Part shown: positions 15,952 to 64,000 of the stretch, in pieces
Numbering within the stretch: the first letter of the stretch is position 1
Layout of the letters: each line of letters begins with the position of its first letter
The notes under the pieces: model-generated
The model's input: only the letters and a program-made list of their open reading frames with translations
What the model was told of the DNA's origin: nothing
Database searches by the model: none
Position numbers and translations under genes: made by a program
Origin: a bacterium
GTDB taxonomy: Bacteria; Patescibacteriota; Doudnabacteria; UBA920
Assembly: GCA_021825655.1 (NCBI GenBank)
Contig: JAKAGU010000004.1
Location: 11,599 to 75,598 of the forward strand
Length of the DNA: 64,000 bases
Reading direction: 5' to 3'

Positions 15952-16542
15952 TTATTTTATTACCACTTTTGTGCCGTCATCAGTCCAGTTATAAAGGCTT
16001 TCCATGTCCTGATAAGACACATTCACGCAGCCGTGACTCATGCGCTGGCCGAATTTATTGTGCCAATAGGCGCCGTGGATGTACAAGTTGCCCAAAGAAC
16101 CGCGCTTAAACATCATGTTCCAACGCGTGTTGGGAAAGAAGTAGTTGGCGCCTTTATAGGTAACCAAAGGCTTTTTTAGAATAATCGAATATTCCCCAGC
16201 CGGGGTCGGGTGCAGGCGATCGCCAGTGGAAACTTTGATGGTTTTCAGCAGGTATGGCCCCAGGCTGTAAGTCAGGCTTTGGGTTTTAAGATTGACATCA
16301 ATATGTTTTTCCAATTTATCGTCTTGCGGGCTGTTGGGATCGTAATTGTATTTTACCTCCTCGCCGTCCGCATAGCCGTCATTGTCCGTATCTGCCCTGC
16401 TGGGATCAGTATGATAAATTTCCAGTTCCTGGACATCGGTCAGGCCATCATGATCGGAGTCCCCGTTCAAATCCAGGGCCTTGGCCCGCACAGGCAAGAG
16501 CAGTACCGCGCAGATTACAAAAAGCAAAAACCTGGGTTTCAT
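15952..16542 (-). CDS. L,D-transpeptidase (YkuD domain) with thrombospondin type-3-like Ca-binding repeats
   Basis: Catalytic motif HGAYWHNKFGQRMSHGCVNV, N-terminal signal peptide, and D-x-D-x-DG repeats (DSDHDGLTD, DTDNDGYADGEE). Start ATG 16542 overlaps the pepN stop as ATGA. Confidence 0.8.
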   Translation of the reverse strand: MKPRFLLFVICAVLLLPVRAKALDLNGDSDHDGLTDVQELEIYHTDPSRADTDNDGYADGEEVKYNYDPNSPQDDKLEKHIDVNLKTQSLTYSLGPYLLKTIKVSTGDRLHPTPAGEYSIILKKPLVTYKGANYFFPNTRWNMMFKRGSLGNLYIHGAYWHNKFGQRMSHGCVNVSYQDMESLYNWTDDGTKVVIK

Positions 16543-39142: not shown

Positions 39143-40900
39143 CTAAGGCTGCACTTTTATTTTAATATTGTTTGCCAAGAACGGCAGGCGTTTTTGCCAA
39201 GTAGGCGACAACACAACGTCAATTCTGTCAATTTCATTGTTTTGGGACAAAATGGCGTTTGCCTCCTCGGGGGTCTTGTTGACCAGCTCTTTGGCCATAT
39301 CCTCAACGCTGGTGGATAAATTATACCACACCCGGCCCTGAAAATGAACTGAGAGTATACCCAACTGGCTGTCGGCCTGGAGCTCTTTGGTTTTATAAAC
39401 CAGCTGGTAGGCGCCGTCCTTGGTATCCAGGGTTTTATTGCCGGAGAGTGTCTGGTCAATCCGGTCAAAAATCAATTTTTCCAAATCAGTTTCACTGATT
39501 GCCAAACCCGCGACTTTGAGTTTGATGTATGCATCAAAGTTGGGACTCTCTGTGCCTGCTGCTTTGTCTGAATTGAACTGTTCAACCTGCAAGGTATACG
39601 CATCGTCCGGCAGGGTTAACCCTTGGCCCTTAAGCTTGTCCTGAACCTTGGCCAGGCCCGCGGCTTTCAGCTGATCCTGGGCAGCGGCCACATCCTGGTC
39701 GGAAACAACCGACAGATACCGGGATGTCCCGCCGCTAATCGGCGAATCCGTCTTGGCGTAAAGCACCAGAGGCTTGCTGCCGAAAACCTTATTGGTTATT
39801 TCCAACCGCGTGCCTGCAGGTAGGTTGTAGCTATCCCCGCCTTCGGCCGCAATCACTTCGACCGGATCTGCCAATGTGGCGGGGTCAACCTCTTTTGTCC
39901 GGACATTTTTGTAACCAGTGGGCTTAAGCTGCGACACATCATTAACCAAGCTGTAATTTTTCCCATTCAGTGACAGTGTGGTGGTTTCGGCCTTCAAATT
40001 TAAAGGCAGGCGTGTAAAATTATAAATCCGGACAAAACCGGTGGCGCGATTGCCCACTTCCTTTTTACCCTGGCTTTCAAAAGTCTTATTCAACTCCAAT
40101 TCCTCGGCAACCTGCGTAGCAGGCAAGACTAATTTCGTAGAGTCAGCCGCCTTCACCGTAGTCCCAAAACTAATTTCCAAATCCCTGACCAGGACATCGT
40201 TTTTGGGCACCAAGGCCACTTCGGCTTTCGGCAGAACAACAAAAACCAAGGACGCCGCCAACAAAACAGCCACCGCCAAAAAACCAACAATCCATTTCCA
40301 GGCGCTCCCTCGGACATCTTGTTCTTTATAATGCTCTTCGATTTCGAAAGGGAAAACATTTTCCTGAACGCTGACCTTAGGCGCGGCCATCTCAGACAAA
40401 ACCGGCTCTTTTTCTTTCGGTTCCTCCGCTTTAATCGGCTCAACCTTGCTTAATTTTTTGGCTGTCTGCTTGATTTCTTCCAGTCCCAAAGGCACCACGG
40501 GTTCCTGGGCCACAAATTTCTCAATTTGTTTTGCCGCCGTTTTTTTTGCAGGCGTTGCAGGCGCTTCAGTGGCCAAATCTTGAATAACTGCCGCTTTTGC
40601 CGGCTTAACGCCGATGCCTATATCCGACATAGTCTTGTTTTTGGGGCTCTTGGGCAAAAATCGCAGGCCAAAACCGGCCTCTTTGGCGTACATTTGCCCG
40701 CGCTCATCCATTGTCAAAATCGAAACAGTCTTTTTGAGCAGGTCCGCCTGTTTTTTTAATAGCCTTAAATTGATGCTGTCATTAAAAAGAAAGCATCTTT
40801 TGGGACAAACCAGCACCACCTCCGGTACAGCCTCTTTTTTTAGCCTTTCGACAATCTTGGAGACGTCGTCTTCCAGGTTTATGTAAATGCTGGGGATCAT
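39143..40900 (-). CDS. Hypothetical single-pass membrane protein (585 aa) occupying the slot where secY-adk-map normally precede infA
   Basis: ~70-aa N-terminal cytoplasmic domain, K/A/P/E-rich linker, one TM (WKWIVGFLAVAVLLAASLVFVVL) and a ~370-aa extracytoplasmic domain. No family recognised. Confidence 0.4.
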   Translation of the reverse strand: MIPSIYINLEDDVSKIVERLKKEAVPEVVLVCPKRCFLFNDSINLRLLKKQADLLKKTVSILTMDERGQMYAKEAGFGLRFLPKSPKNKTMSDIGIGVKPAKAAVIQDLATEAPATPAKKTAAKQIEKFVAQEPVVPLGLEEIKQTAKKLSKVEPIKAEEPKEKEPVLSEMAAPKVSVQENVFPFEIEEHYKEQDVRGSAWKWIVGFLAVAVLLAASLVFVVLPKAEVALVPKNDVLVRDLEISFGTTVKAADSTKLVLPATQVAEELELNKTFESQGKKEVGNRATGFVRIYNFTRLPLNLKAETTTLSLNGKNYSLVNDVSQLKPTGYKNVRTKEVDPATLADPVEVIAAEGGDSYNLPAGTRLEITNKVFGSKPLVLYAKTDSPISGGTSRYLSVVSDQDVAAAQDQLKAAGLAKVQDKLKGQGLTLPDDAYTLQVEQFNSDKAAGTESPNFDAYIKLKVAGLAISETDLEKLIFDRIDQTLSGNKTLDTKDGAYQLVYKTKELQADSQLGILSVHFQGRVWYNLSTSVEDMAKELVNKTPEEANAILSQNNEIDRIDVVLSPTWQKRLPFLANNIKIKVQP

Positions 40901-44247: not shown

Positions 44248-45507
44248 TTATTTGGTTATTTCTTCCAATGCCTTATCCATTTGGGGATCTTTGTTTGCTT
44301 TGGCGTCATCCTCTGTCAATTTTACCGGAATATCCGGGTTCAGTCCGTCTTTGTCCAAATTTTTTCCGCCGGGCGTAATCCACTTCGCCACCGTAACCTT
44401 TACCGCTCCGCCTTCGGGCAAGTTCACCAACTCCTGGACGCTGCCTTTGCCGAAAGATTTTTCACCCAGTAACGTCGCTTTGCCATGGTCATGCAATGCG
44501 CCGGCTAAAATCTCTGCCGCCGAAGCGCTGCCGCCGTTTATGAGAACAATTGTTTTCATCCCTCCCAGGCGGTTTAGCCCCGAAGCCGTATACACCTGTT
44601 CGCTTCCCTGGCTTTTGGCTTCTTTTACCACCACATCACCACTCTTCACCCACTGTGAAGCCACATCCACAGCTGACTGCAAATAACCACCCGGGTTATT
44701 GCGCAAATCCACAATCAAACCGTCGGCCGATTTGGTAATCACGTCATTGACTGCGTTTTGGAAAAGCGGCACTGTGTCTTCGCCAAAACGGCTTATGGTA
44801 ATAACCGCAATTCGCTTGCTTCCAACCTGTTTAAAATCCCATTTGACGCTCTTAATCACAATCTGGTCCCGGACAATTTCCAAGTCGAAAGGCTGCAGGC
44901 GGCCTTCACGGGCAATCGTCAAAACAACTTTCGTGCCCCGCTGGCCGCGGATATGATCCACAGCCTCATCGGTGGTCCAGTCTGCCGTAGAAGCCCCGTC
45001 AACTTTCATGATAATGTCTTTGGGTCTTAACCCTGCGCGGCTGGCCGGGGTTCCGTCCAGAGGTGCAATAATCACAATGTTGCCGTTCTGCTTGCCAATT
45101 TCAGCGCCAATGCCGTCAAAGTTGCCCTTGAGGTCCGTATTAAAAATTTCCAGTTCTTTTGGTTCAAAAAAGGCGGTATACGGGTCGCCAGCCGCGGCCA
45201 CCGCGCCTTTGACTGCTCCGTACAAATATTGCTCGGGCGTGGGCGCTTTACCTATAAACTTGGAGTCCACAACCTTCATGGCGTCCCACAGCAGGTTATA
45301 ATCCACATTTTTGGGCACGCTGGACTGATTAACTACCTGATAAGTGCTGCCGTTCCACACATAACCCTTATGGCCGGTCTGGTAGCCAGCGCTAAAGGAA
45401 ATTACCGCTAAAAGCACGGCCGCTGCCCAAACTCGCCAAGCCAAGCCTTTTTTGGGCACAGGCGGTTGGGTCTGGGCCGATTCTCCAGAAATTTGATTAT
45501 TTTCCAT
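44248..45507 (-). CDS. ctpA: Carboxyl-terminal processing protease (S41) with PDZ domain
   Basis: PDZ (GIGAEIGKQNGNIVIIAPLDGTPASRAGLRPKDII) and the S41 catalytic region VLINGGSASAAEILAGAL with a downstream K. Confidence 0.85.
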   Translation of the reverse strand: MENNQISGESAQTQPPVPKKGLAWRVWAAAVLLAVISFSAGYQTGHKGYVWNGSTYQVVNQSSVPKNVDYNLLWDAMKVVDSKFIGKAPTPEQYLYGAVKGAVAAAGDPYTAFFEPKELEIFNTDLKGNFDGIGAEIGKQNGNIVIIAPLDGTPASRAGLRPKDIIMKVDGASTADWTTDEAVDHIRGQRGTKVVLTIAREGRLQPFDLEIVRDQIVIKSVKWDFKQVGSKRIAVITISRFGEDTVPLFQNAVNDVITKSADGLIVDLRNNPGGYLQSAVDVASQWVKSGDVVVKEAKSQGSEQVYTASGLNRLGGMKTIVLINGGSASAAEILAGALHDHGKATLLGEKSFGKGSVQELVNLPEGGAVKVTVAKWITPGGKNLDKDGLNPDIPVKLTEDDAKANKDPQMDKALEEITK

Positions 45508-50813: not shown

Positions 50814-52256
50814 TTATGCGGCATCTTTTTTAAAAAATAATTTTTTGACCGTTCGGATGTCTTCTTTGCTGGCAAAACCCGTTGCCAAAAGCGCCAGGCT
50901 GTAAACCCCGGCTCCCAGCGGCAAAGTCAGCGCCAGGCTGTGGGTGCGCAGCGGCCAAAGCACTAGGCCCATGGCCAGGGCGGCGGCGGCGGGTTTAAAA
51001 AAATTAGAAACAAAACGGAAGTCGGTTATTTTGCGGCGCACAAAATAAAAGTAAAACAAGCCCTGCAGGCTTTCCGAAACCACGGTCATGGCCGCAGCCG
51101 CTTGGATGCCGAAACGCGGAATCAGCAGCAGATTGCCGGCAATATTCACAACAACATTGGCTCCGGTTATTACCACCGCTTTTTTGGTCAGCTGTGAAAT
51201 CACCAGGGAATTAACCGGGATATACATAAATAAAATCGCCGGCGCCCAAATGAGCACGGAAAGGACGGGAGCCGCAGGCGCGTATTCGGGACCCGCCACC
51301 AGGGCAATAAGTTTTGCCGACAGCACCATACCGCCCGCCGCCATGGGCAAAGCCGCCGCCATCATAAGGCGCAGATATTTTTCCAAATTTTCCCTGACTT
51401 CGCTTAGCGCGCTTTTTGCCATTAACCCCGCAAAAAACGGAAACAGGGTATAAGACACAACCGAAGGGAAAAAACCCAGCAAATCAAAAATCTTATAGGC
51501 GGCAGTATAGTAGCCGGTCTGGACATAGCCTTTCATGAGAGAAATCAGCACCACGTCAACCCGGTTGTAAATAGCGCTGAACCCCACCAACAAAGCAAAA
51601 GGCCAGCCTTGTTTAATCACATTTTTAATCAGGTGAAAATCCAGCAGCTTAAGGCCGCCCAAAATTTTTAGCCTTGGCAGGTGTTTGGCCGCATAAATGC
51701 GGTACAGTACCAAATCCAAAAGCCCAAAGCACAGCTGCACGCTCGCCAAAAAAACAATATGCCGGTGCAGGAAAATGGCCGCAAAGATAATGCTTACATT
51801 TACACACGAATTCAAAAAATTTATCCAGGCCACTTTGCGCAAATCCTGGAACGCGGCCATAACCGCCAAATACGGATAAGTCAGGGCATTGGCCACCATG
51901 CCCAAACCCGCCAGGCAAATACCGTAAAACACGGCCGGATCGGGATAGCGCAAAAAAGCGATCAAAACCAGCAAGACATACAGCAGCAAGGCTACCACCA
52001 CTTCAAAGGAAAAAAACTCGTAAAAATATTCCTGGGTTTCCCCCGGATTTTCGCTCATTTTCTTGGTAATGAACTGCTGGATGCCAAAGTCTACAACGGT
52101 TGAAAACAGCAGGACATAGGACAGGATAAGCTGATACTGGCCGCTTGCGTACGGACCTAAGTAGCGGAAAAGCTGGGTGTACGCCACAAATAGCAAAACC
52201 AGGGCCAAGACCCTGGAAATGCTAAGCCAGAAAATATTTTTGGAGACCTGGGACAT
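50814..52256 (-). CDS. Wzx-like oligosaccharide flippase (MOP superfamily polysaccharide biosynthesis protein)
   Basis: 480 aa with ~14 TM helices and the polysaccharide-biosynthesis-protein family architecture. Confidence 0.7.
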   Translation of the reverse strand: MSQVSKNIFWLSISRVLALVLLFVAYTQLFRYLGPYASGQYQLILSYVLLFSTVVDFGIQQFITKKMSENPGETQEYFYEFFSFEVVVALLLYVLLVLIAFLRYPDPAVFYGICLAGLGMVANALTYPYLAVMAAFQDLRKVAWINFLNSCVNVSIIFAAIFLHRHIVFLASVQLCFGLLDLVLYRIYAAKHLPRLKILGGLKLLDFHLIKNVIKQGWPFALLVGFSAIYNRVDVVLISLMKGYVQTGYYTAAYKIFDLLGFFPSVVSYTLFPFFAGLMAKSALSEVRENLEKYLRLMMAAALPMAAGGMVLSAKLIALVAGPEYAPAAPVLSVLIWAPAILFMYIPVNSLVISQLTKKAVVITGANVVVNIAGNLLLIPRFGIQAAAAMTVVSESLQGLFYFYFVRRKITDFRFVSNFFKPAAAALAMGLVLWPLRTHSLALTLPLGAGVYSLALLATGFASKEDIRTVKKLFFKKDAA

Positions 52257-52275: not shown

Positions 52276-54129
52276 CTACTTAAGTATGGCATCACCTTTG
52301 GCATAAGCGTCGACCTCATCCTGAGACAAAGTGCTAACCCTGGAGAATTTATAGCCCCGGGCTTTGAAGGCTTTGGCGGACAACGGCCGAAGCTGGCTCT
52401 TGCTGACAAGGAAAATGGTTCCGGAAGACGAACCCTTTACCAGCGTGCCGTCCCGCGGCGGAATCGGAATGCCATCAAACCATTCCAGCGCCATATTGGA
52501 AGTAAACACGTAGTCAGGCGTAATGCCGCGCTGTTTGGCTACAAAAGCTGAAATTGGATGTTTGGTACCGTCTTTGAAAATATAAAGCGGCCCGGTTTTG
52601 CTGTCAGCGGAGAAGAAGGTGCGGTCTTTCGGGGTGGCAAAAGCGCCAATGGGCAACGCGCCGACTTCCTCGGAGCTTAAAGAGGCCACGTTCTTAAAGC
52701 TCAAACCCCGGTTTTTGAACAACTCGCCGGTAAGCGGACGCTTAAAGCCAGCTTCCATGAGGAAAACCGTGCCAGACTCAGCGGCTTTAACCAGAGTTCC
52801 GTCCAGCGGCGGAACAAAACCTTGCTGGGTGTATGTAGGGATTTCCGTATCAGGCACTATCACAATCTGTTTCGGGGTAACTTTGCGCTGTTTGAATGTA
52901 AATTCGGAAAACAGCTTAATCATTCCATTGTCAACCAAATATACTGCCGGGTTCTGGGCACCGCGAATTATTGTACCGTCATTGGGCGGCAGTACCGCAC
53001 CTGAGTCAAACAGCGCTCCATCCGAACTGGAAATAGTGAGGGCGGAAGCAAGGTCCAAACCCCGCTGTTTGATTACGAAGTCAGAAGCAGGATGCTTGAC
53101 ACCGGCAATAAATACATAGGTCTTGCCGTCGTCGGCCATCTTCACTACGGTATTGTCTGCTGGGGCAAAAATTTTATCCGTGGGGTAACTTTCAAATTCG
53201 TTCGGCGAAATGGTAATTTTTTTGGTTAGGTCCAAACCCCTTTGTTTTGCCACAAAGTCCGGCACTAGCTGCTTGGTGCCGTTCTGGATAATATAGGTCT
53301 TAATGTCGTTGGCCAGTGACAAAAGCGTGCCATTGGGATATCTAAACCAGCTGTTAAAAAATTTCCAGAAGTTGTAATTGCCATTAAAAACATGGGGGGT
53401 ATAGCGGTAAAGGGCCGCTGTGGCCAAATTACTCAAAGTAACAAATTGGCTCGGCGCCGCTTCGGCATAGCCCCCGGTTGTGTTGTCCAAAAGCACGCTC
53501 TCCCCCACTTTCGCCACCCTGCCATCCACTTGCGGGCCGCGGCCGCCGGGCGTGCTGTAAGACTTCATCAGGGATTTGGCCGCACCCAAATACCGGTTGC
53601 CGTCGGCGTCATAGTTGCCGAAGAGTTGGTAATAAAATCCAGGGAACAGATTGCCGCACCCGGAAGCATCGGGACAATCAAAACCCATGGCATGATCCAA
53701 GGCTCTTTGCAGGTGGTCAGGGTCATAGTCGTTAGCCGAGGTCACCAACCCCTGCTCTTTATTCAGTGTAACCAAAATAACCTGCGGGTTAAGGCCGCTT
53801 TGCAAGGAGGCGTCCCAGATTAATTCGGCCGCGGTCCTCAGGCGCCCCAGATTCGGCCGCGGGTCTTCCAGTCCGGTTTTTAAAAGCGAATTATCAGGTT
53901 CCTTGAGTTTAACCAAAAAGCTCGCAGAAGTATCGGCCAATACGGAATTTTTCGCTTCCAAAAATTTTTGTACGCCCTCGGGTCCGCCGAAAGTCTGAGT
54001 ATCGGCAAAAACTTTGTCGTCAATCAGCTTATTGGGGTCAAAGCCGGGGTCAATTTGGGCCAAAGCCTGCAGCGGAAAAACCAGCAACAAAAGTAGGCCG
54101 AGTATTTTTTTGAACTTTTGATTTCTCAT
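52276..54129 (-). CDS. Secreted protein with six tandem ~60-aa repeats of an unassigned module
   Basis: Signal peptide (LLLLLVFPLQALA), a ~280-aa N-terminal domain, then six repeats with consensus P.DGTLVK....VYL...G.K.PI....F..RG..F..V...S..E. The same repeats occur in the adjacent subtilisin. Confidence 0.45.
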   Translation of the reverse strand: MRNQKFKKILGLLLLLVFPLQALAQIDPGFDPNKLIDDKVFADTQTFGGPEGVQKFLEAKNSVLADTSASFLVKLKEPDNSLLKTGLEDPRPNLGRLRTAAELIWDASLQSGLNPQVILVTLNKEQGLVTSANDYDPDHLQRALDHAMGFDCPDASGCGNLFPGFYYQLFGNYDADGNRYLGAAKSLMKSYSTPGGRGPQVDGRVAKVGESVLLDNTTGGYAEAAPSQFVTLSNLATAALYRYTPHVFNGNYNFWKFFNSWFRYPNGTLLSLANDIKTYIIQNGTKQLVPDFVAKQRGLDLTKKITISPNEFESYPTDKIFAPADNTVVKMADDGKTYVFIAGVKHPASDFVIKQRGLDLASALTISSSDGALFDSGAVLPPNDGTIIRGAQNPAVYLVDNGMIKLFSEFTFKQRKVTPKQIVIVPDTEIPTYTQQGFVPPLDGTLVKAAESGTVFLMEAGFKRPLTGELFKNRGLSFKNVASLSSEEVGALPIGAFATPKDRTFFSADSKTGPLYIFKDGTKHPISAFVAKQRGITPDYVFTSNMALEWFDGIPIPPRDGTLVKGSSSGTIFLVSKSQLRPLSAKAFKARGYKFSRVSTLSQDEVDAYAKGDAILK

Positions 54130-54206
54130 GAATCTTTTAAATATGCGTATTAATTATTTTATGGAAAGTCACCTGCATAGTAATAGACGGTTAAACCAAA
54201 ACTTTG

Positions 54207-56069
54207 TTACCTGATATACGGGTCGCCCTGGGACATGTTTTCCAAATCCTTGTCAGGAATGCTAAAAATCGAAAAAACGTTCAAGCCTTTTTCCGTGAAA
54301 AAGCCGTAGTTCATGGGATGCAAAACACCCGCCACTGTCCAATACACAGTCCGGTTTTTATACCCCCTGACGATAGTCCCGTCGGTCGGCGGCAAAAAAG
54401 AGCTGGTCACCCAGGAATTAAACTCGGGATAATCCACGGTATTAACCGCCTGAAAACTAAAACCCCTCTGTTTAAACACGTCATAGGTTATAGGCATCTT
54501 CTGCCCTGCATTAATAAGGTAAACCGCAGGCTGGCTGGACAGCTTAATTAGCGTGCCGTCGTCCGGTGTCACATAGGGCCCTTCGGGAAAATTATCAAGC
54601 AATTGCGCGCTCACGGTTTTTACCGGCGTGCCTGAAAACCGGCGGTTCATCACAAACGGAGACACGGGTCGCTTCTTCCCGCCGGAAATTTGGTAAACCA
54701 GGCCGGCGTCCGCCAGCTTGACCAAATCCCCTTCCTTCAACTCGTTAATTGCCAAAGAACCGGACAGGCTGCGGGGCACATTAATCCGGCCGGCCCCCAA
54801 AAGTCCGCGGCAGGAAAGTCCGCCGCACTGGGAAAGATTTTGGCTGTCTACGGAATCGGCAGTGGTGATTATTTTATCACGGATCTGGATATTGGTGGCA
54901 TTTGGAAAAACGGTTTTTATCAAAGCCGCCTGGCCGACAACGAACGGAACAGCCAGAGAGGTGCCGGAAGCATAGGCGTAAGAGTTAGGCGCATATTTTT
55001 TTGAAATGGGGTCGTGGTTAATAGTGGACAGTATGCGTTTGCCCGGGGCCACAACATCAATGCAATTTTTGCCGTAATTGGAAAAGCTTGGCTTAATATC
55101 ATTCTGGTCAACGGCGGCCACGCCGATAATCATATTCTGGTTGTTGTCGTCACAAATCGGAAATACGGGTTCAGTATCCAGGCTATGGCCTTCGGTGGCC
55201 ACGTCATTGCCCGCCGCAGCCACAATTACCAGGCCTTTTTTAAAGGCGTAATCGATGGAGTTCGCCAGAACCGTGTCATGCGCAAAGCCAATGCCCCCGA
55301 TGCTTAAGTTGATAAAACCCGCGCCGTGGTCTGCGGCCCAGACAATCGCCTCTGAGATCGTGGCCGCATCGCCCTTGCCCGACCCATCCAGGGCTTTTAA
55401 GGGCATAATGCTGATCTGCCAATTGGTGCCCGCTATCCCCAAATTATTATTAACTGCGGCGCCCAAAATTCCCGCCACCAGAGTGCCGTGGCCATTGTCA
55501 TCGGAATTGACCCGTCCCGAAATATCCTGGCGCGCCAAAAAATCAAAGCCCTTTACAAAAGTTATGGCCTGCAAATCTTCATGCGTCGCATCCACGCCCG
55601 TATCCACCACAGCCACGACATTGTCGCGGCTTCCGGTTACCACATTCCACACCTCGGGAAAGCCGGCTTTTTCCAAACCCCACTGCTTGTCAATGTCGGA
55701 AGTGTTGAGGGTAAAGCCCGGGTCGTTTACCGATACGGCTTGTTCGTCAAACGGGCTGACCGGTTCCAAATAATCGTATTGCCCGGAAAAATCCTGGCGC
55801 AGCTCCTTTGTTTCGCAGGCGCATTTAAAAGAATAGATATTCTGAAAATCCGCTGAGTTCGTGCCCGTAAAGCGCTGCTGGTAATTTTTATCCAGGCTTC
55901 CTAGCATTCCGGCAGCGGCTGCAGAGGCTTTAAATTTTACCAAAAACTCGCGGTTTTGCGGCAACGGGGCATATGCAAAAGCCGCGCTCGCGGGGAAAAC
56001 CGCCGCCACAAGCGCCGCCAACAGGCTGAGTGAAATGAATAAAAATTTTATTCCGCCCTTTAACTGCAT
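54207..56069 (-). CDS. Subtilisin-like serine peptidase (S8) with three C-terminal copies of the ~60-aa repeat module
   Basis: Catalytic triad regions VAVVDTGVDATHEDL / HGTLVAGILGA / GTSLAVPFVVGQAALI. Signal peptide present. The C-terminal 180 aa carry the repeats (e.g. PDDGTLIKLSSQPAVYLINAGQKMPITYDVFKQRGFSFQAV). Confidence 0.85.
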   Translation of the reverse strand: MQLKGGIKFLFISLSLLAALVAAVFPASAAFAYAPLPQNREFLVKFKASAAAAGMLGSLDKNYQQRFTGTNSADFQNIYSFKCACETKELRQDFSGQYDYLEPVSPFDEQAVSVNDPGFTLNTSDIDKQWGLEKAGFPEVWNVVTGSRDNVVAVVDTGVDATHEDLQAITFVKGFDFLARQDISGRVNSDDNGHGTLVAGILGAAVNNNLGIAGTNWQISIMPLKALDGSGKGDAATISEAIVWAADHGAGFINLSIGGIGFAHDTVLANSIDYAFKKGLVIVAAAGNDVATEGHSLDTEPVFPICDDNNQNMIIGVAAVDQNDIKPSFSNYGKNCIDVVAPGKRILSTINHDPISKKYAPNSYAYASGTSLAVPFVVGQAALIKTVFPNATNIQIRDKIITTADSVDSQNLSQCGGLSCRGLLGAGRINVPRSLSGSLAINELKEGDLVKLADAGLVYQISGGKKRPVSPFVMNRRFSGTPVKTVSAQLLDNFPEGPYVTPDDGTLIKLSSQPAVYLINAGQKMPITYDVFKQRGFSFQAVNTVDYPEFNSWVTSSFLPPTDGTIVRGYKNRTVYWTVAGVLHPMNYGFFTEKGLNVFSIFSIPDKDLENMSQGDPYIR

Positions 56070-56085: not shown

Positions 56086-56805
56086 TTACTTATATTTGCC
56101 TGTCCAGAGATTCAACCGCACCTGTACAACCTCCAGCAGCATGCTGACCATTCCGCCAAACTTAACATGGCTTTCCGCATCGTTAACCCAGCGCACAGGC
56201 ACTTCCTTAATTTTGTATTTTCGCCTGCGGGCCAGAGCCAAAATTTCCACGTCAAAAGCCCAACGGTAAATACTCTGTTTGGGGAAAATTGTTTCCGCCG
56301 CCTGCCTACTGAATGCCTTAAAGCCGCATTGTGAATCCGTCACGCCAACGGGCACCAAGGTATGGACGATAAGACGGAAAACCCCGCCCAAAAAATCCCT
56401 AATCCATGGCTGCTTTACGGCAATATCCGAACCGGCAATCCTTCTGGAACCCACCACCAAGTCAAAACCCTGTTCAAAAAATGGCAGCATTTTTACCACC
56501 TCTTCCACGCGGGTGGAATTATCCGCATCCATAAAAAGCCTAATGTCCCCGGTCGCTTTCAGCATCCCTTGTTTGGTTACCCAGCCTTTGCCGTGGTTTT
56601 CCTGGTTATCCACCAAGGTTAAATTGGGGATTTTCTTCTCGTATTCAGCCACGACCGCAGCCGTGCGGTCTTTGGAACCGTCGTTCACCACCAAAATTTC
56701 GGTTGGGTAGGTTTGCTTCTGCAAAAACTCGCTTACAGCAGCCAAAGTTTTGCCGATTCTGTGCTCCTCGTTATAAGCGGGAATGACGACGGATAATTTT
56801 TTCAT
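56086..56805 (-). CDS. GT2 polyprenol-phosphate glycosyltransferase (dolichol-phosphate mannose synthase-like)
   Basis: MKKLSVVIPAYNEEHRIGKTL, DGSKD and DAD motifs. 239-aa soluble GT-A. Confidence 0.8.
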   Translation of the reverse strand: MKKLSVVIPAYNEEHRIGKTLAAVSEFLQKQTYPTEILVVNDGSKDRTAAVVAEYEKKIPNLTLVDNQENHGKGWVTKQGMLKATGDIRLFMDADNSTRVEEVVKMLPFFEQGFDLVVGSRRIAGSDIAVKQPWIRDFLGGVFRLIVHTLVPVGVTDSQCGFKAFSRQAAETIFPKQSIYRWAFDVEILALARRRKYKIKEVPVRWVNDAESHVKFGGMVSMLLEVVQVRLNLWTGKYK

Positions 56806-56893: not shown

Positions 56894-58144
56894 TTAGTTT
56901 TGTTTAAATTGTTTCCAGGCGGTCTCGATAATTGTTTGCAAATTACTGTGCGTAGGCTCAAACCCCAGAAGCGTTTTGGCCTTGCGCGGGTCGGCAATCA
57001 GCAAATCCGCATCCCCCGCGCGACGAACGCCTATCTCCATAGGAATCATGCGGTTTAACACCTCCGCGGTTGCGTTAATCATCTCAAGTACGCTGTAGCC
57101 CCGGCCGGTGCCTATATTAAAAACCTCAAAACCCGCAGACTGGGACAGAAACTTTAAACCCAGCTCATGCGCCTGGGCAATATCCAAAACGTGTACAAAA
57201 TCGCGCACGCAGGTGCCGTCCGGCGTGGCATAATCGTTGCCGTTAACCTGGATCTGCGCCTTGTCCCCATTGGCAACCTCTAGTATGTTGGGTATCAGAT
57301 GCGAAGCGTGTGTTGGCTTTATCAGCCCGTCAAAATCGCAGCCGCAGGCATTAAAGTACCTGAAAACAATCGCCGCCACACCCGAATACTTAGAGTGATA
57401 CTCGATAATTTTTTCCGCCACAAACTTGCTGTGCCCGTAAGGATTACCGGGGCTGACCGGGGACTCTTCCGAAAGCGGTCTGCCTCCGGCCGGATCATAC
57501 AGCGCGCAAGTGGAGGAAAAAACAATTTTTTTAACCCCGAACTCATGCATCACCGAAAGCAACTTGGAAGTGTTGATGGCATTGTTCTCCAAATACCTTT
57601 CCGGCTGCCTTACGGACTCTTCGACTTCTATGCTGGCTGCCAGATGCATTACGGCTTCAAACTGGTTGGAAGCAAATACGTCCCTGACAAAGTTCATGTC
57701 AGCCAAGTCGCCTTCATAAAAAACTGCGCCTGAGGGCACGTTTTCCCGTTTGCCGGTGGAAAGGTTGTCCAGAACCGCGACTTGGTGGCCGCTGGCCAAA
57801 AGTTTTCTGGCCACATGGGAACCAATATAACCCGCCCCGCCCGTAACCAGAATTTTTTTGCCTTGGGTTGCGGCCGGGCTGGCCGGGGAAATCTGTTCAA
57901 CCTGGGGCGCCGCGGCTTTGGACACGGACTCTTCCGCAGGCAGGCCGCCCACCAAAGCGTTGTACTTATCAATGGTTAAAACCACAACCGCGGGCTTATT
58001 GTCCAGATTCAGAATCAACCCGCCGTCCCGCTGTCTGGCTTCGGAAATTAACTCTTGCAAATATTGGTTATCCATAAATATTGCCTTTGCGCCAACTTTT
58101 AAGGCAAAGCCGGCGCTTAAAGTCCTAACAACAAACCACAGCAC
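56894..58144 (-). CDS. galE: UDP-glucose 4-epimerase GalE with a ~95-aa N-terminal extension
   Basis: Core KKILVTGGAGYIGSHVARKL...YxxxK (PYGHSKFVAEK). The first ~95 aa (from the GTG at 58144, or ATG at 58075: MDNQYLQELISEARQRDGGLILNLDNKPAVVVLTIDKYNAL) precede a P/A-rich linker. Confidence 0.85.
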   Translation of the reverse strand: MLWFVVRTLSAGFALKVGAKAIFMDNQYLQELISEARQRDGGLILNLDNKPAVVVLTIDKYNALVGGLPAEESVSKAAAPQVEQISPASPAATQGKKILVTGGAGYIGSHVARKLLASGHQVAVLDNLSTGKRENVPSGAVFYEGDLADMNFVRDVFASNQFEAVMHLAASIEVEESVRQPERYLENNAINTSKLLSVMHEFGVKKIVFSSTCALYDPAGGRPLSEESPVSPGNPYGHSKFVAEKIIEYHSKYSGVAAIVFRYFNACGCDFDGLIKPTHASHLIPNILEVANGDKAQIQVNGNDYATPDGTCVRDFVHVLDIAQAHELGLKFLSQSAGFEVFNIGTGRGYSVLEMINATAEVLNRMIPMEIGVRRAGDADLLIADPRKAKTLLGFEPTHSNLQTIIETAWKQFKQN

Positions 58145-58316: not shown

Positions 58317-61300
58317 TTAGCTAAACAGGGCTCTTAGCGCCTTGGCAGCCAAGTCGCGGCGGCGGAAGAGCGCAAAGCTGGCGCTGGACAAACCGCCGAA
58401 AACGAAGGCCAAGGAATCAGCGCCGGTTTTTGGAGCCACAAAGGCGCCTAAAACCTGCTGCTGGGGCTGATTAATTCTGACACTTACGGTATTGCCGTAA
58501 GTATTGGACATCAAATAGGTAACCCCGGAAGAAATAGAATACTTTATCCTCACCCGGAAGCTCTTAGAAACGCTGCCTCCGGCCGGAATGGTCAAACCCT
58601 GGAAGTTGATAGTATTGCCGGATAATTGGCCGCCTCCGTTATCGGAAAGGTCAGCGTAAGGCAACACCTGGGACAAATCGTCGCTGATTACAAAATTGGT
58701 AGCCGGCGTATTGCCATTATTGCTTACTGTCAGGGTGTAAGTGATATAATCTTCGCTGCTGGCAGTGACCAGCGTGGCATCCGAATTCTTGGTATCGTTA
58801 AAGCCGCGCTTGGAATAAGCCAGGTTAACATTACCGCCGGCCACTGAACCGGACACGAATACCCAGGCATCGTCCTGCACCTGGCTGACCGAATCGCCGC
58901 TCACGCTCGCGGTGTTTCTGATGCTGTCTCCCGAATTCCCCGTAACGCGAGCCTGGAAAGTCATAGTGCGGGAATCATTGGCATACAGGGTGCCGATGTA
59001 GTAATCGTTGTTGCCGGTAAAGTTGCCGGAAACCCAAGATAAACCGCTCGGCAGATAATCCGTAACCCGGACATTATTCACGGGCTGATTGCCGGTGTTG
59101 CGCACCACAATCTGGAACTCCACAGTGTCATTATTGTTGGCGGACACGCTCTTCTGGAAGCTGCCGTAGTTGTTCCGCACGGTCTTGCTAATGGACAGCT
59201 GGCGGAATTCGTTGGAAGGCACCGTATTGCCGTTCTGGATGTAATAGAAGTAGTTATTCGTAGTTGTGGTGTTGGTGGTATTGGTTGTATTCGTGGTATT
59301 GGTGGTGTTTGTAGTATTGGTGGTATTAGTGGTGTTGCAGGAATTGTTGACGCAATTATTATAATTGCCCGGGTTCACCGGGGCAGCCGGGATATAGGCC
59401 ACCGCTGACACCAAAATAGTGTTGCAGTCCGCATCAATCATGTAGAAAGAATGCGTGCTGCCAGCAGCCAGGTTGCTTACGGTATAGCTGCCGGTGCTGC
59501 CGCCTGTGGCAATGACGTTGCTGGAGCTGTCCTGGGCAAGTTTAATCTGATGGTTGCCGGTAGAAGTCCAGTTTACCGTCAGAGAATAGGTGTCGTTATT
59601 TTTTACCGGCGTGCCCAGATTCAGCGCATAGTTAGTGTTGCTAATGCACTGTGTCTGCTCGTCTTGCCTGACAATCAGAGTATCCAACAAACCGCCGCAG
59701 GAAGAAATATCATAGAGCCGGAATTCATAAGTTAGGTTGGGCTTAATACCTGTTACATCGCGGCTGCCCGAAGCCATCGCAGAGCTGACCAGTGTATGTT
59801 CCTGGCCGTCTTCCGGGTCCAGGTAAGTCAGCTTAACCGGATTACTGCCGGAGAAGGAATAGAACAACGTACCGCGGTAGGTGCCGTCGCTGTTTTTCAC
59901 CAATGCGCCCCGGGTCAGGTCGGCGCTCTTGTTGATTTCACAAACCGGATTACCCGGATTGACCTGCGTATAACAGCTGGCTGTCTGGCTGCCGCTCTGC
60001 ACGGTCACGGTTTTCTGGCCGGTTGTGCTGTAAACGGTGCTAAAATTGGTTCCGCTGCCGCTGCCCGGATTGCCGCTGCCTGCTGTCCAGGTGTAAAAAC
60101 CCGTACCGCCGGTGGCGGAAAAATAGGCAGTATTGCCTACTGTTACAGGGCTATTTAAAGCCGAACAGGACAACTGGACTACCGGAGGCCTGACGGTCAC
60201 AATCGGACAATAGGCAAACTTGCTGCCGCTTATAACCTTAACCTGTTTGGAACCGGACGAAACATAGCGGGTAACAAAATCCGTCTGGCTGCTCGCGCTC
60301 TGAGTCGCGGGGTTGCCGTCCGGCGCATTAAAGGCAAATGTGCCGTTGCCGCCCGAAGCGCGGAAGGTTACGGGCTGGTTAATATCGACAACAGAGCTGC
60401 CGACAATATCACACTGCACGTCATTGGGCTGCACTTGGTTAACCACCACAGCCGGACAATCCACGGACTGGTTGCCGCTTGTCACCCTCACGGTCTTGGT
60501 GCCAGAAACGGCATAAGAAGTGTTAAAGTTCGCCCCGCTGCCGCTGCCCGGATTACCGTCGTTCGCAATCCAGGAATAAGTGCCGGTGCCGCCAGTGGCC
60601 GAAAACATGGCCGCCTGGTTGGTGTTAACATTCGGCGTCAGGGTCTGACAAACCAAAGTCGGCGTAACGGGCGTACAATCCTTTACAATAAAATTAACGC
60701 TCTTTCTCACGCCATCGATGTTGGCTTCTTTGCGCCAGGAACCAATCTGGTCAGCGCGCCAGGCTGTGCCCAGCTGAGTCCAGTAGCCCTGGTTATTCAA
60801 ATACAGGCCGTAGTCGGTATCGACTTCGCCGGTGGAAGCGCCGTTAAAGAAGGAGCTCCACAAGATTTTTTTGCCGGCCATGGCGGGGCTGGAAGTGATG
60901 GTGTACTGGGTGCCTTCGCCCACGCAGAATTCGGTTTTGTTGATGGTAAAATTGTAGTCAACCGGAGTGCCGCCGCAGGAAAGATCCGGAACCAAAAGCT
61001 GCTTCCGGGCCAATTCAGAGTGCTGGCCGTTCGTGGTGTTGTACATAATGTACAAATAGGTGTGGTTCGGGGTCAGCCAGGGGGTATCGGCATGGCCGTT
61101 GATATCGCGGGCCAAAATCTGGGTGGCCGTATTATCGGTAATATCCTGCACGGTAATTTCCGCATCAGTCACATCGGAAGAGTTGGTCCAGTCCACCGTG
61201 CCGGTCCTAAGACACTGCGAACCAATCTGGCCGCCGGCAGAGGCGGTCAGGGTGTTTTGGCCGGTGGGCGCGGTTTTTACCACGCGGACGGTAAACACGA

Positions 61301-61958
61301 TAAATTTGCTGTATTTAAAACAGCCGTTTAAGTCATTCAAATGGGCTACTACGGCCGGCTCGCCGTTCTGGGTGCTCAGCGAAACGCTGCCCGCGCTGCT
61401 GTCATAGTTGCCGAACCAGTCTTCGAAGTGCTGGCTGCCGGGAACAATCTGGAGTTTTTCGTCGCTGGCCGTGGTAATGTTAATCGCGCCGGTAATGCTG
61501 CCTGCGTTGCTGCTGGTTACAGTCGTACCGATTACGTGGTTAGGCTCGGCATTATCATTTACTGTAATCACCGCGTTTATATTCTGCGCATAACCGTTGC
61601 CTTCGGCAGTGCCGTTATGCACATACGACCAGACGTCAAAAGTCTGCCCGTCAGAAGCGCTGACTTGCTGGGTCCTTTGGCCGTTATATACTGCGAGCAA
61701 GGACGGAAAATCGTGGCAGGGATCCTGGCCGGCATTAAAAGAAGTCGGAAACGGGTTAAGTGTCGGCACAGACGGCGCGTTATCGCACACCACTTCGCCC
61801 TGCGCAGACAGCCGCGGGTCATTTGCCCTGGGCGCCAACGCAAAAACCGCGGCCGTCACAACGAACAAAACCGCGGCCGTGGTGTGGCCGACTTTTTTCA
61901 AACTCATGTTCTTGGCCACAGCTTTGGCTTGGCCAATAATTCCGATTAACTGGTTCAT
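58317..61958 (-). CDS. Giant (1213 aa) cell-surface protein with PKD-like and DUF11 repeats and a C-terminal sortase-type sorting signal
   Basis: Signal peptide; three ~95-aa PKD-like tandem repeats (FSATGGTGTYSW..GNPGSGSG.NF); a (TTN)n tract; two DUF11-like repeats (VEFQIVVRNTGNQPVNNVRVTDYLP; TYTLTVSNNGNTPATNFVISDDL). The C-terminus is VAPKTG, then hydrophobic LAFVFGGLSSASFALF, then RRRD. Confidence 0.7.
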   Translation of the reverse strand: MNQLIGIIGQAKAVAKNMSLKKVGHTTAAVLFVVTAAVFALAPRANDPRLSAQGEVVCDNAPSVPTLNPFPTSFNAGQDPCHDFPSLLAVYNGQRTQQVSASDGQTFDVWSYVHNGTAEGNGYAQNINAVITVNDNAEPNHVIGTTVTSSNAGSITGAINITTASDEKLQIVPGSQHFEDWFGNYDSSAGSVSLSTQNGEPAVVAHLNDLNGCFKYSKFIVFTVRVVKTAPTGQNTLTASAGGQIGSQCLRTGTVDWTNSSDVTDAEITVQDITDNTATQILARDINGHADTPWLTPNHTYLYIMYNTTNGQHSELARKQLLVPDLSCGGTPVDYNFTINKTEFCVGEGTQYTITSSPAMAGKKILWSSFFNGASTGEVDTDYGLYLNNQGYWTQLGTAWRADQIGSWRKEANIDGVRKSVNFIVKDCTPVTPTLVCQTLTPNVNTNQAAMFSATGGTGTYSWIANDGNPGSGSGANFNTSYAVSGTKTVRVTSGNQSVDCPAVVVNQVQPNDVQCDIVGSSVVDINQPVTFRASGGNGTFAFNAPDGNPATQSASSQTDFVTRYVSSGSKQVKVISGSKFAYCPIVTVRPPVVQLSCSALNSPVTVGNTAYFSATGGTGFYTWTAGSGNPGSGSGTNFSTVYSTTGQKTVTVQSGSQTASCYTQVNPGNPVCEINKSADLTRGALVKNSDGTYRGTLFYSFSGSNPVKLTYLDPEDGQEHTLVSSAMASGSRDVTGIKPNLTYEFRLYDISSCGGLLDTLIVRQDEQTQCISNTNYALNLGTPVKNNDTYSLTVNWTSTGNHQIKLAQDSSSNVIATGGSTGSYTVSNLAAGSTHSFYMIDADCNTILVSAVAYIPAAPVNPGNYNNCVNNSCNTTNTTNTTNTTNTTNTTNTTNTTTTNNYFYYIQNGNTVPSNEFRQLSISKTVRNNYGSFQKSVSANNNDTVEFQIVVRNTGNQPVNNVRVTDYLPSGLSWVSGNFTGNNDYYIGTLYANDSRTMTFQARVTGNSGDSIRNTASVSGDSVSQVQDDAWVFVSGSVAGGNVNLAYSKRGFNDTKNSDATLVTASSEDYITYTLTVSNNGNTPATNFVISDDLSQVLPYADLSDNGGGQLSGNTINFQGLTIPAGGSVSKSFRVRIKYSISSGVTYLMSNTYGNTVSVRINQPQQQVLGAFVAPKTGADSLAFVFGGLSSASFALFRRRDLAAKALRALFS
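59261..59336 (-). repeat. Imperfect 9-nt tandem repeat (ACCACCAAT-like) encoding (TTN)8 inside the surface-protein gene
   Basis: The coding strand reads AACACCACTAATACCACCAATACTACAAACACC..., giving NTTNTTNTTNTTNTTNTTNTTNTT. Confidence 0.7.
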
Positions 61959-62268: not shown

Positions 62269-63210
62269 TTACGGTCTACCGGGCACCCAATACTTGATGT
62301 TGGCTGCCCCGCCACCCGGCAAGGCAAAGTAAATGCCCGCACCGGCAGCCAAACAGCCGACTTTCTCAATGGTGCCGGGAAGGCTCCAATTCTTGATGTC
62401 GACTGTCCACGCGTAGAGGCAGTTCAGTCCCGGCAAGTAAAACAGCCAGAACCGGCCTTTTTTGTCGAGCTTAACCGTACCCACGCAGATGACTTCGTGA
62501 CCCTCGCTATCGTGGGTTTTGAAGGCAATCTGGTGCTCGCCTTTGCCCGCCAGTTTCAGCAGGCGGCTATGCGAGACCAAAATGCTGGAGCCGATACCAA
62601 GCGGTTTGCCGTCAATGCTCCACTCGCCGGAGGCATACCCATCGGTCACTTTGCTGGTGAGCCTAATGATCTTGCTCTTGGGATTGAGCTCGATCACCAT
62701 CTCACACGTCGGGCAAGTGTGCTTGGGCACTTCGGCTGCAGGCGGCGGCACCGGAGCGGGTTCGGGTTCCGGCGGCGGTTGCCTGCGGACCACGGGCGGA
62801 ATTGGGGCGGGCGGCTCAGGCTGCGGCGGCAGAAAGACCTCGAAGATCTCATTGCCGCACCGGCCGTCAGCCACGACCTTACCGCCCTGCGTGAAGAGCG
62901 GCGTGTTGGCAGGCATTCTGATAATACGATGCCCCATGGCAGTTTGTTCCCGAGCGCACACATCAAAGGGGTAGCTTATCACCCCGGCTTCGTGGTTCTC
63001 GAGTCTTTCTTGCCAGGCGCCGAGGCGCGTGGTGTCGCGCGGTTCGTAAACCTTGAACGCCGGGGCCGCAAGGCAGGCCGACCCTTCCGTGAAGAAAGTC
63101 GGCGTGTGAATATCGGCCTGCGGGTCGTACTTGGTATAGGTTTGCTGCCCCCACGCGATTGCGCCGAAGACAACGGAAAAGACCACGAGCATCAAAACGA
63201 TTCTTTTCAT
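62269..63210 (-). CDS. Secreted hypothetical protein with a proline-rich linker, in a GC-rich segment
   Basis: Start at MKRIVLMLVVFSVVFGAIAWGQ (ATG 63210, GGAGG 6 nt upstream). Central PPQPEPPAPIPPVVRRQPPPEPEPAPVPPPAAEVP. C-terminal Cys-containing domain. The ORF-track start at 63264 is probably too long. Confidence 0.5.
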   Translation of the reverse strand: MKRIVLMLVVFSVVFGAIAWGQQTYTKYDPQADIHTPTFFTEGSACLAAPAFKVYEPRDTTRLGAWQERLENHEAGVISYPFDVCAREQTAMGHRIIRMPANTPLFTQGGKVVADGRCGNEIFEVFLPPQPEPPAPIPPVVRRQPPPEPEPAPVPPPAAEVPKHTCPTCEMVIELNPKSKIIRLTSKVTDGYASGEWSIDGKPLGIGSSILVSHSRLLKLAGKGEHQIAFKTHDSEGHEVICVGTVKLDKKGRFWLFYLPGLNCLYAWTVDIKNWSLPGTIEKVGCLAAGAGIYFALPGGGAANIKYWVPGRP

Positions 63211-63352
63211 TGCAACCCTCCTCAGAGTTGACTTGGAACTGGCGTACCTCGCGGCACGCTGCATGGTTTCCCGAAACAGCGTCTGCCGGGTACCACAGCG
63301 CCGCTAAAATTTTACTTTTAGCGGCACAAGGTACTTAGCAAGAAAATCAATC

Positions 63353-64000
63353 TTAATCTTTTTCTATCTGGGTCAGCTCGCCGAACACAACTAAGCGTTT
63401 GGCAGTCGAGCCCACGGGCCAGCAGGTGGAAAGAGCCACCACGGACTTGCCGGTATTGGCAAACTGTTCCTGATCAGTCGGCTTGTATTCTTTGCTGCCG
63501 GTGACCACATAATGCAGGCGGGCGTCCTTGCCGTTCTTTTGTACCACGGTAATCTTAAACGAGGTGTTCGCAGGCAGGTCGCCCAAAGTGGCAAAAATCT
63601 GATTATAGCTGCCCTTGGCCCAAATATAATTACTGGAGTGGCCGGAAATATAGGAGGTGCCGATTTGGCCCGGCAAGGCAGTGCCCGGATAATGCACTAC
63701 GCCGTTTTGCAAGTCGCGGGTGAAATTCTTCGTATCTGTCGTCCAAATCAAAGGCACATTAATGTTCAAGGAAGGGATTTCCAAACGGCCGGGAACGCTG
63801 GTATCCACATCCAAACCGTTAATACCCAAAGTGTCCTGGGCAACCGCGTTGGTGTTTGCGCCCGTGGCTGGAGCCGACAGGGGCTGAATATAATTTGTAG
63901 TGTTATTGTTTTGGGCGGGCAAGCCAAAAGTCGAATTGTTGTTCTGAACTGCACCAGTCTGGCTACCACCAGCTGAACTGTTGTTTAGCTGGAAAAGACT
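63353..64000 (-). CDS. Sortase (transpeptidase), C-terminal catalytic domain; gene continues past the window end
   Basis: Catalytic His (YISGHSSNY), the TLxTC motif (VALSTCWPVGS) and a downstream Arg. The ORF-track TTG start at 63922 is not the true start: the frame stays open to position 64000 through an N/T/Q/S-rich linker. Confidence 0.75.
   Translation of the reverse strand, partial: SLFQLNNSSAGGSQTGAVQNNNSTFGLPAQNNNTTNYIQPLSAPATGANTNAVAQDTLGINGLDVDTSVPGRLEIPSLNINVPLIWTTDTKNFTRDLQNGVVHYPGTALPGQIGTSYISGHSSNYIWAKGSYNQIFATLGDLPANTSFKITVVQKNGKDARLHYVVTGSKEYKPTDQEQFANTGKSVVALSTCWPVGSTAKRLVVFGELTQIEKD

Follow-up and report, generated by a model that had tools for sequence, protein, structure and literature searches.

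Two neighbouring minus-strand genes, here called A and B, lie in a 64-kb stretch of a Doudnabacteria contig (JAKAGU010000004.1, assembly GCA_021825655.1; 'the window' is this whole stretch), and both encode predicted secreted proteins that end in copies of one repeat of ~59 residues. What this repeat is, and what an array of it does on an exported enzyme, are the questions raised by the locus. The preliminary description of this DNA could place the repeat in no family and proposed that it tethers secreted enzymes to a glycan made by the neighbouring genes. We find that the unit belongs, by its modelled fold, with the repeats of EccB, a component of actinobacterial type VII secretion systems (T7SS), and that in A and B it serves as a tandem C-terminal array on soluble enzymes, not within a secretion machine. 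The best reading of the array, to which we give a probability of about 55%, is that of a non-covalent, multivalent cell-envelope targeting module that retains exported enzymes on a repeating wall polymer.

Repeat units in proteins A and B

The two genes and their parts are as follows (aa, amino acids).

52276..54129, minus strand: gene A, 617 aa; predicted signal peptide, conserved N-terminal domain (N-domain) and six EccB-type units
54055..54129, minus strand: predicted signal peptide of A, aa 1-25, MRNQKFKKILGLLLLLVFPLQALAQ, from a reading of the sequence
53341..54054, minus strand: N-domain of A, aa 26-263, conserved, mostly helical
53167..53340, minus strand: A unit 1, aa 264-321, from the alignment; β-β-β-α-β-α in the AlphaFold2 model
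52990..53166, minus strand: A unit 2, aa 322-380, from the alignment and the AlphaFold2 model
52813..52989, minus strand: A unit 3, aa 381-439, from the alignment and the AlphaFold2 model
52636..52812, minus strand: A unit 4, aa 440-498, from the alignment and the isolated model
52462..52635, minus strand: A unit 5, aa 499-556, the most divergent (TPKDRTFF...GITPDY), from the alignment
52279..52461, minus strand: A unit 6, aa 557-617, C-terminal, from the alignment; phrog_9616 match at aa 559-615 (E 9e-9)
54207..56069, minus strand: gene B, 620 aa; predicted secreted thermitase-like S8 protease with three EccB-type units
55974..56069, minus strand: predicted signal peptide of B, aa 1-32, ending in AVFPASAAFA, from a reading of the sequence
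54837..55622, minus strand: Peptidase_S8 catalytic domain of B, aa 150-411 (Pfam PF00082)
54570..54743, minus strand: B unit 1, aa 443-500, from the alignment
54393..54569, minus strand: B unit 2, aa 501-559, from the alignment
54210..54392, minus strand: B unit 3, aa 560-620, from the alignment

Nine units of 58–61 aa were cut from an alignment (A1), six of them in A (aa 264-617, 52279-53340) and three in B (aa 443-620, 54210-54743). These are the numbers given in the preliminary description, whose repeat consensus was essentially right; the first unit of A starts ~19 residues earlier than it had been placed (53340, not 53283), and the array of B starts at 54743, not 54752. BLASTP aligns A with B in multiple off-register ways (E 5e-22 to 7e-17). 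In leave-one-protein-out searches, a hidden Markov model (HMM) of A's six units scores 105.2 bits on B and one of B's three units scores 184.5 bits on A, compared with 6.5 bits for the best of 200 composition-preserving shuffles. A unit search of the 64-kb window found no EccB-type unit in any open reading frame (ORF) besides A and B.

Both proteins begin with predicted Sec-type leaders, as had been proposed, with cleavage read from the sequence between LQALAQ and IDP in A and between ASAAFA and YAP in B. The maximum 11-aa hydropathy is 2.94 in the A leader and 2.73 in the B leader; among 11 cytoplasmic controls taken from the window, no protein exceeds 1.74. Inspection of the two sequences showed no LPXTG-type sortase signal, lipobox or transmembrane anchor, and no sorting signal follows unit 6 of A. 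The arrays are basic (isoelectric point, pI, of 9.25 in A and 8.14 in B), whereas the N-domain of A and the protease part of B are acidic (pI ~5).

Fold of the unit and kinship with EccB

An AlphaFold2 model of A, built with 63 orthologues, has a mean predicted local distance difference test (pLDDT) score of 85.7, with ~90 along the units. Each unit is modelled as β-β-β-α-β-α, a three-stranded meander followed by a helix, a fourth strand and a second helix, and unit 4 retains this topology when modelled in isolation (pLDDT 75.6). Comparison with the PDB by Foldseek, a check that the preliminary description had suggested, gave significant matches to EccB only. With the full model there were 11 matches at E ≤ 1e-3, all to EccB1, EccB3 or EccB5 (E 7e-8 to 1.5e-4, probability at least 0.98). 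The ten best matches of the isolated unit were likewise all EccB, with unit-normalised template modelling (TM) scores of 0.52–0.68, probabilities of 0.87–1.0 and a root-mean-square deviation (rmsd) of 2.6–5.5 Å over 53–61 aligned columns; low-probability matches following these were wall-binding domains of enterococcal phage endolysins. The full model superposes on EccB with a global TM score of 0.10–0.16 (rmsd 16–34 Å), so the units of A resemble EccB repeats while the overall arrangement of the array does not. The known EccB1 repeats are ~55 aa long, with a four-stranded sheet and two helices (PMC4769845). The EccB comparators were the Pfam family PF05108 and PDB entries 4KK7, 3X3M, 5CYU, 6SGY and 7NP7.

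At the sequence level, PF05108 is matched by 9 of 65 diverse proteins carrying the repeat (carriers), on their units and at profile positions 171-247, which is the region of EccB repeat R2. Carrier P0301 scores 61.4 bits as a whole protein against a gathering cutoff of 27, with its aa 180-244 aligned to profile positions 183-247, and carriers P0386 and P0315 score 30.7 bits against the same cutoff. Neither A, B nor any of the nine units individually matches PF05108 at E ≤ 1. Profiles of the window-type (A3) and actinobacterial-type (A7) units align to each other with an hhalign probability of 99.3% (E 4.6e-20). Because the window units reach no Pfam threshold, the EccB-type assignment rests on structure combined with transitive sequence similarity. 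On these grounds the repeat is no longer 'unassigned', as it had been called: the ~59-residue unit is, as modelled, an autonomous small α/β domain homologous to EccB repeats R1–R4.

In Pfam and NCBIfam, protein A had no match of any kind, and neither B nor any single unit matched a repeat family. The exclusions made in the preliminary description held, with no match to SLH, CWB2, LysM, SH3b/SH3_5, PG_binding_1, choline-binding or GW profiles at E ≤ 1 for whole A and B or at E ≤ 10 for single units. The unit also corresponds to phrog_9616, whose 118 positions equal two units and which is matched by A with an E-value of 9e-9 and by relatives with values down to 3e-47. DUF7454 (PF24253), a 59-position profile, was rejected as the identity of the repeat: some A orthologues reach borderline scores (21.2–27.1 bits, cutoff 27) in a register that straddles the unit boundary, and there is no match in A, B, the window units or 41 diverse units. 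No mention of DUF7454 was found in the literature, and neither this family nor phrog_9616 has a described function. PDB sequence searches with the unit profiles A1 and A7, protein A, P0301 and the N-domain profile A5 gave no genuine match; matches to 'Cake' designer propellers came from a summed 18-residue β-hairpin motif worth 3.6 bits per copy, and antibody matches were noise. A literature search for EccB-like modules on hydrolases, or for wall-binding repeats of Patescibacteria or the candidate phyla radiation (CPR), found no description of this module, and none of the curated libraries models the EccB-type unit as a stand-alone domain.

Distribution and partner domains

Run over 1.84 billion representatives with a 43-unit profile (A3) and a limit of E ≤ 1e-3, an HMM search of large protein sets, also suggested earlier, gave 4,094 clusters at 50% identity; single proteins have as many as 16 units. 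The module occurs across CPR, Actinomycetota and actinophages, with one named carrier from Actinomycetota. Among the best carriers with an intact N-terminus, 86 of 112 have a hydrophobic leader, compared with none of the 11 cytoplasmic window controls, and the leaderless ones are mostly visibly truncated gene calls. Nearly all carriers are proteins with a signal peptide; occurrence mostly in cytoplasmic proteins was one of the findings that the preliminary description had named as speaking against its proposal.

A Pfam census of the 65 diverse carriers found Peptidase_S8 in 11, SpoIID in 10, Amidase_2 in 7, Peptidase_M23 in 3, Glucosaminidase in 2 and CHAP in 1; CAP, SNase, LGFP, cohesin and Ig-like domains also occur in this set. 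The viral structure database BFVD contains stand-alone two-unit proteins from Rhodococcus and Streptomyces phages (TM score 0.6 over the whole target) and, at lower probability, phage amidases and glucosaminidases bearing units. A tblastn search of phages with actinobacterial-type units returned nothing, and one with the units of carrier P0289 found the module in 116 actinophage genomes. One such protein is the product of Streptomyces phage LilMartin gene 63 (locus L081, 50131-50574), a 'hypothetical protein' of ~147 aa that consists of two EccB-type units and is encoded just after a minor tail protein of ~2,000 aa and ~1.5 kb before the holin. Proteins of this type are kept in 114 Streptomyces and 2 Rhodococcus phages. 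By analogy with PlyCB, the cell-wall-binding subunit of the streptococcal phage lysin PlyC (PDB 4F87), the two-unit protein may be a stand-alone wall-binding subunit, or else a tail accessory.

Non-covalent wall targeting is the best reading of the arrays because the carriers have secretion signals and are fused to hydrolases, and because the arrays are basic and their partners acidic; the use of the module by phages belongs to the same set of evidence. Wall binding, its multivalency and the nature of the ligand are what we infer from it. A and B would be exported by Sec and their signal peptides then cleaved. The basic array would bind, non-covalently and multivalently, to a repeating polymer of a Gram-positive-type envelope; candidates for it are peptidoglycan itself and a glycan, possibly anionic, linked to the wall. 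In this way the acidic catalytic domains would be held at the wall in the manner of SLH, CWB2, LysM and SH3b modules. The anchoring role advanced in the preliminary description is therefore kept as far as envelope retention goes, this being the function best supported by partners, leaders and charge; its other part, a glycan made by the neighbouring genes as the ligand, is unproven because an eight-unit form of A lies outside glycan loci (see below).

The N-domain of A and the protease of B

We detected 698 homologues of A, the best 120 of which are 54–98% identical, and 1,856 homologues of B, the best 120 of which are 52–95% identical and all have Peptidase_S8. Wherever an organism is named, these best homologues come from the Patescibacteria group or Candidatus Doudnabacteria.

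The N-domain of A represents a large uncurated family of its own, mostly from CPR (2,386 proteins at E ≤ 1e-5). In 115 of 117 sampled members EccB-type units come after it; the two exceptions are short sequences. A look for the N-domain fused to known wall-binding modules, which covered the best 120 matches, turned up only members with these same units. It has an invariant K124-E125-Q126 and an 'ATAALYRYTPH' motif. Across the family the K-E-Q and an N-x-A-T...Y-x-Y-T-P motif are invariant, and two Cys are conserved. No match to the N-domain was found in Pfam, NCBIfam, PHROGs, PDB sequences or BFVD. The sole fold hint is a weak Foldseek match to the lytic transglycosylase SltB2 (E 0.3), and we do not claim a lysozyme-like fold on that basis. 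A role as a putative wall hydrolase is plausible.

Protein B scores 157.6 bits against PF00082 (cutoff 21.8) and has the triad motifs of the family, namely DTGV (for D, starting at aa 156), HGT (for H, starting at aa 194) and GTS (for S, starting at aa 369). Its closest solved relatives are AK.1 protease, thermitase and subtilisins, with no mycosin in the top 60. The top NCBIfam match is the mycosin family TIGR03921 at 172.9 bits, well under the equivalog cutoff of 278.75. As this match is unspecific as well as below the cutoff, kinship of the thermitase-like B with T7SS mycosins was rejected. Among the annotated genes of the window's 36–64 kb region there is no T7SS gene (EccC, EccD, mycosin or WXG100), and the 1–39 kb region, where smaller ORFs of 1–36 kb are only partly annotated, has no ORF above 900 aa; its two largest ORFs encode SecA and an M1 aminopeptidase.

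Conservation of the arrays and a possible A–B complex

Conservation was examined in a sample of 80 loci from species-representative genomes. Unit counts of three in B and six in A recur in 57 of the 80. Between species, units at the same position are 54–64% identical, compared with 27% for units at different positions, and even the most divergent, unit 5 of A, has a position-specific conservation of 63%. These values and the recurring counts indicate that the arrays are old and that each unit is individually constrained.

Constraint of this kind is also what a defined quaternary or tertiary architecture would show, and the units could instead be a protein–protein assembly module as in EccB, acting in oligomerisation, in an A–B complex, in docking of the S8 protease onto the array or as a rigid stalk. 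The EccB5 subunit of ESX-5 forms dimers chiefly by way of R1/R4, and its R4 is the docking site of the S8 protease MycP5 (PMC8131196), so the conserved B–A pair with its fixed 3+6 units could be a complex. The adjacency of B and A is conserved together with the counts in the 57 loci, and an S8 protease is the single most frequent partner domain among the diverse carriers (11/65). The ESX-5 data are the only experimental data on the EccB-repeat fold. The preliminary description had held that a match to a named repeat family would count against its proposal; such a relation was found in part, with EccB, which is no experimentally established wall binder.

We nevertheless consider an assembly module unlikely. 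B is thermitase/AK.1-like and not mycosin-like by both measures given above (no mycosin in the top 60; TIGR03921 at 172.9 against 278.75), and the array of A does not superpose on EccB as a whole (TM 0.10–0.16, rmsd 16–34 Å). No S8 gene partners the eight-unit variant of A in the A–B arrangement. Fusion to five classes of peptidoglycan hydrolase, together with basic charge, is more typical of wall targeting, which remains our preferred reading.

The locus and its glycan genes

A and B stand among genes of surface-glycan assembly, as the preliminary description had observed: GT2 and GT4 glycosyltransferases, Wzy_C, a Wzx-type flippase and a polyprenyl-phosphate (polyprenyl-P)-type GT2 are all present. 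The order in the window is GT2, GT2, Wzy_C, GT4, a cytidylyltransferase-like gene, the Wzx-type flippase, A, B, the polyprenyl-P-type GT2 and GalE. The immediate neighbours, given as context only, are the following.

56086..56805, minus strand: GT2 of polyprenyl-phosphate glycosyltransferase type (GT2c), upstream of B (Pfam)
50814..52256, minus strand: Wzx/MOP-type flippase, downstream of A (Pfam Polysacc_synt, weak Wzx_EPS)

The GT2c-B-A-Wzx order is kept in nearly all Doudnabacteria-type loci of the sample that have sufficient flank, and the A proteins of these loci range from 81% to 45% identity. The conserved block usually extends upstream through a DUF11 protein and GalE, and downstream through cytidylyltransferase-GT4-Wzy-GT2-GT2-S41-AlaRS. 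Many of the Doudnabacteria-type metagenome-assembled genomes in the sample (among loci L005-L079) are titled 'uncultured Candidatus Saccharibacteria' or 'Gammaproteobacteria', which are probably taxonomic mislabels from automated submission.

This synteny raises the possibility that the array binds a secondary cell-wall glycan made by the flanking GT2/GT4/Wzy/Wzx genes, as a co-evolved pair like SLH with secondary cell-wall polymer or CWB2 with PSII. The conserved order, which may take in the cytidylyltransferase, GT4, Wzy and both GT2 genes, would fit such a pairing, as would the basic arrays and a nucleotidyltransferase-type gene of the locus, from which an anionic polymer could be supplied. 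A wall polysaccharide backbone is the ligand of PlyCB, which has been reported as a distant structural relative. The same collinear block, however, also retains an S41 protease, AlaRS and a PGI-like gene, which are functionally unrelated, and genome collinearity alone may explain the synteny. The eight-unit A is found in 12 loci; their flanks of ±10 kb contain no homologue of the window's glycan genes, and it is not adjoined by an S8 gene in A–B arrangement. The module moreover spans Actinomycetota, diverse CPR and Streptomyces and Rhodococcus phages, whose wall glycans differ, and the glycan genes themselves are generic: GT2c, whose NCBIfam matches (PgfS best, then PpgS and ArnC) are all under cutoff, and GalE could equally serve protein glycosylation. 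We therefore regard this particular ligand as rather improbable. Only GalE reaches an equivalog score (TIGR01179, 371 bits) in typing of the locus glycan; an anionic polymer could not be established, the cytidylyltransferase-like gene being generic.

The eight-unit form of A (~730 aa; loci L049-L058, L062, L064, L073 and L082) belongs to other CPR lineages, with records labelled Uhrbacteria, Parcubacteria and, oddly, 'Gammaproteobacteria'. In the one such locus that was annotated with Pfam, no glycan genes were found at all, and A stands alone between opposite-strand genes.

Doudnabacteria are presumed episymbionts, and A and B might accordingly be weapons that attack or remodel a host envelope, with the arrays recognising the host wall. 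The CPR lifestyle would suit this, as would the presence of the same module in phages, which must recognise a host envelope, and of hydrolases with many units among the carriers. However, the envelope-biogenesis block in which both genes lie is the cell's own, and nearly every member of the lineage has them, as single copies with high conservation. Such a pattern is seen more typically with housekeeping wall remodelling, and we consider a host-directed weapon very improbable.

Several neighbouring genes of the locus deserve mention. An S41 (CtpA-like) protease with a PDZ domain (44248-45507, minus strand) lies within the conserved collinear block. In other bacteria, proteases of the CtpA type control peptidoglycan hydrolases, and with B there would be two envelope proteases near the putative hydrolase A. 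On the other side, a gene at 58317-61958 (minus strand) encodes a DUF11/PKD surface protein of 1,213 aa that ends in 'APKTG', a hydrophobic stretch and 'RRRD...', an end resembling a sortase sorting signal of variant form. In transcription order, a sortase gene (63353-63922, minus strand) precedes it by ~1.4 kb, and the pair is conserved with the B–A block in most Doudnabacteria loci. The GalE ORF (56894-58144, minus strand) has an N-terminal extension of ~95 residues containing 'MDNQYLQELISEARQRDGGLILNLDNKPAVVVLTIDKYNALV', a segment that by eye looks like a Phd/YefM-type antitoxin fold; the extension could be a fusion or an over-extended GTG start. GT2c, GalE and a large sortase-substrate-like protein together resemble, by analogy, the streptococcal Pgf set for protein O-glycosylation, so that some genes of the 'glycan locus' might act in glycosylation of surface proteins instead of building a wall polymer.

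Elsewhere, the annotated 36–64 kb region and the largest other ORFs of the window comprise ribosomal and RpoA genes, AlaRS, SecA, the M1 aminopeptidase and the glycan genes. The M1 aminopeptidase (16539-19076, minus strand, 845 aa) matches eukaryotic puromycin-sensitive aminopeptidase over its full length (742 bits, E 7e-222), a striking similarity; no bacterial aminopeptidase N of the PDB list is as close. Three minus-strand ORFs had no match in the libraries tried: 393-2564 (723 aa), 39143-40900 (585 aa) and 62269-63264 (331 aa), the last with a leader-like N-terminus.

Significance

The assignment names and gives a fold to a very common 'hypothetical' repeat, with at least 4,094 clusters at 50% identity. 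The module is near-universal in Doudnabacteria-type genomes, and modelling it as a stand-alone domain would improve annotation of CPR surface proteomes. That EccB repeats anchor the ESX machine to the wall is a hypothesis dating from 2016, for which the fusions to SpoIID, amidase, M23, glucosaminidase, CHAP and S8 domains are independent comparative evidence. The soluble, readily expressed arrays and the small phage proteins are reagents that bear on how ESX is seated in the mycobacterial envelope, and if binding proves true, lysins engineered against actinobacteria would gain a new targeting domain in this unit.

A broader and tentative picture, which we think doubtful as a whole, would join three propositions. 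EccB repeats and this module would form one ancient, mobile wall-binding family shared by CPR, Actinomycetota and phages, in which the EccB repeats anchor ESX; the N-domain of A, with its invariant Glu, would represent a novel class of wall hydrolase whose coupling to the module is obligate; and B–A would be a protease-controlled autolysin system in a CPR envelope-glycan locus.

Comparison with known systems

EccB is a periplasmic core component of the actinobacterial T7SS, with an N-terminal cytoplasmic segment, a single transmembrane helix and four repeats that surround a central core domain in quasi-two-fold fashion (R1/R4 and R2/R3 flanking). The units of A and B are like EccB R1–R4 in length (~55–59 aa), in the four-stranded sheet with two helices, in their extracytoplasmic location and in the proline-rich linkers between units. 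In contrast to EccB, A and B have six or three units placed head to tail on soluble Sec-exported proteins, with neither transmembrane anchor nor core domain, and no ecc genes were found in the window. In A the units follow a predicted cleavable leader and an unrelated helical N-domain; in B they follow an S8 domain. A and B are therefore not EccB proteins, though their units are relatives of the EccB repeats.

In their proposed function the arrays are like SLH, CWB2, LysM, SH3b, choline-binding, GW and PG_binding_1 modules, which are tandem, non-catalytic end modules that retain secreted enzymes non-covalently. Partner domains are also shared with these modules (amidases, glucosaminidases, M23, CHAP and S8), whereas the EccB-type unit has no sequence or fold relationship to them. 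For the B–A pair, Bacillus subtilis offers WprA, a wall-retained S8 protease found beside autolysins and proposed to control their turnover. The parallel with B is a plausible functional analogy only, as the mechanism of retention differs and no targeting module is in common. No paradigm is changed by these results, since tandem wall-targeting repeats on secreted enzymes are already well known.

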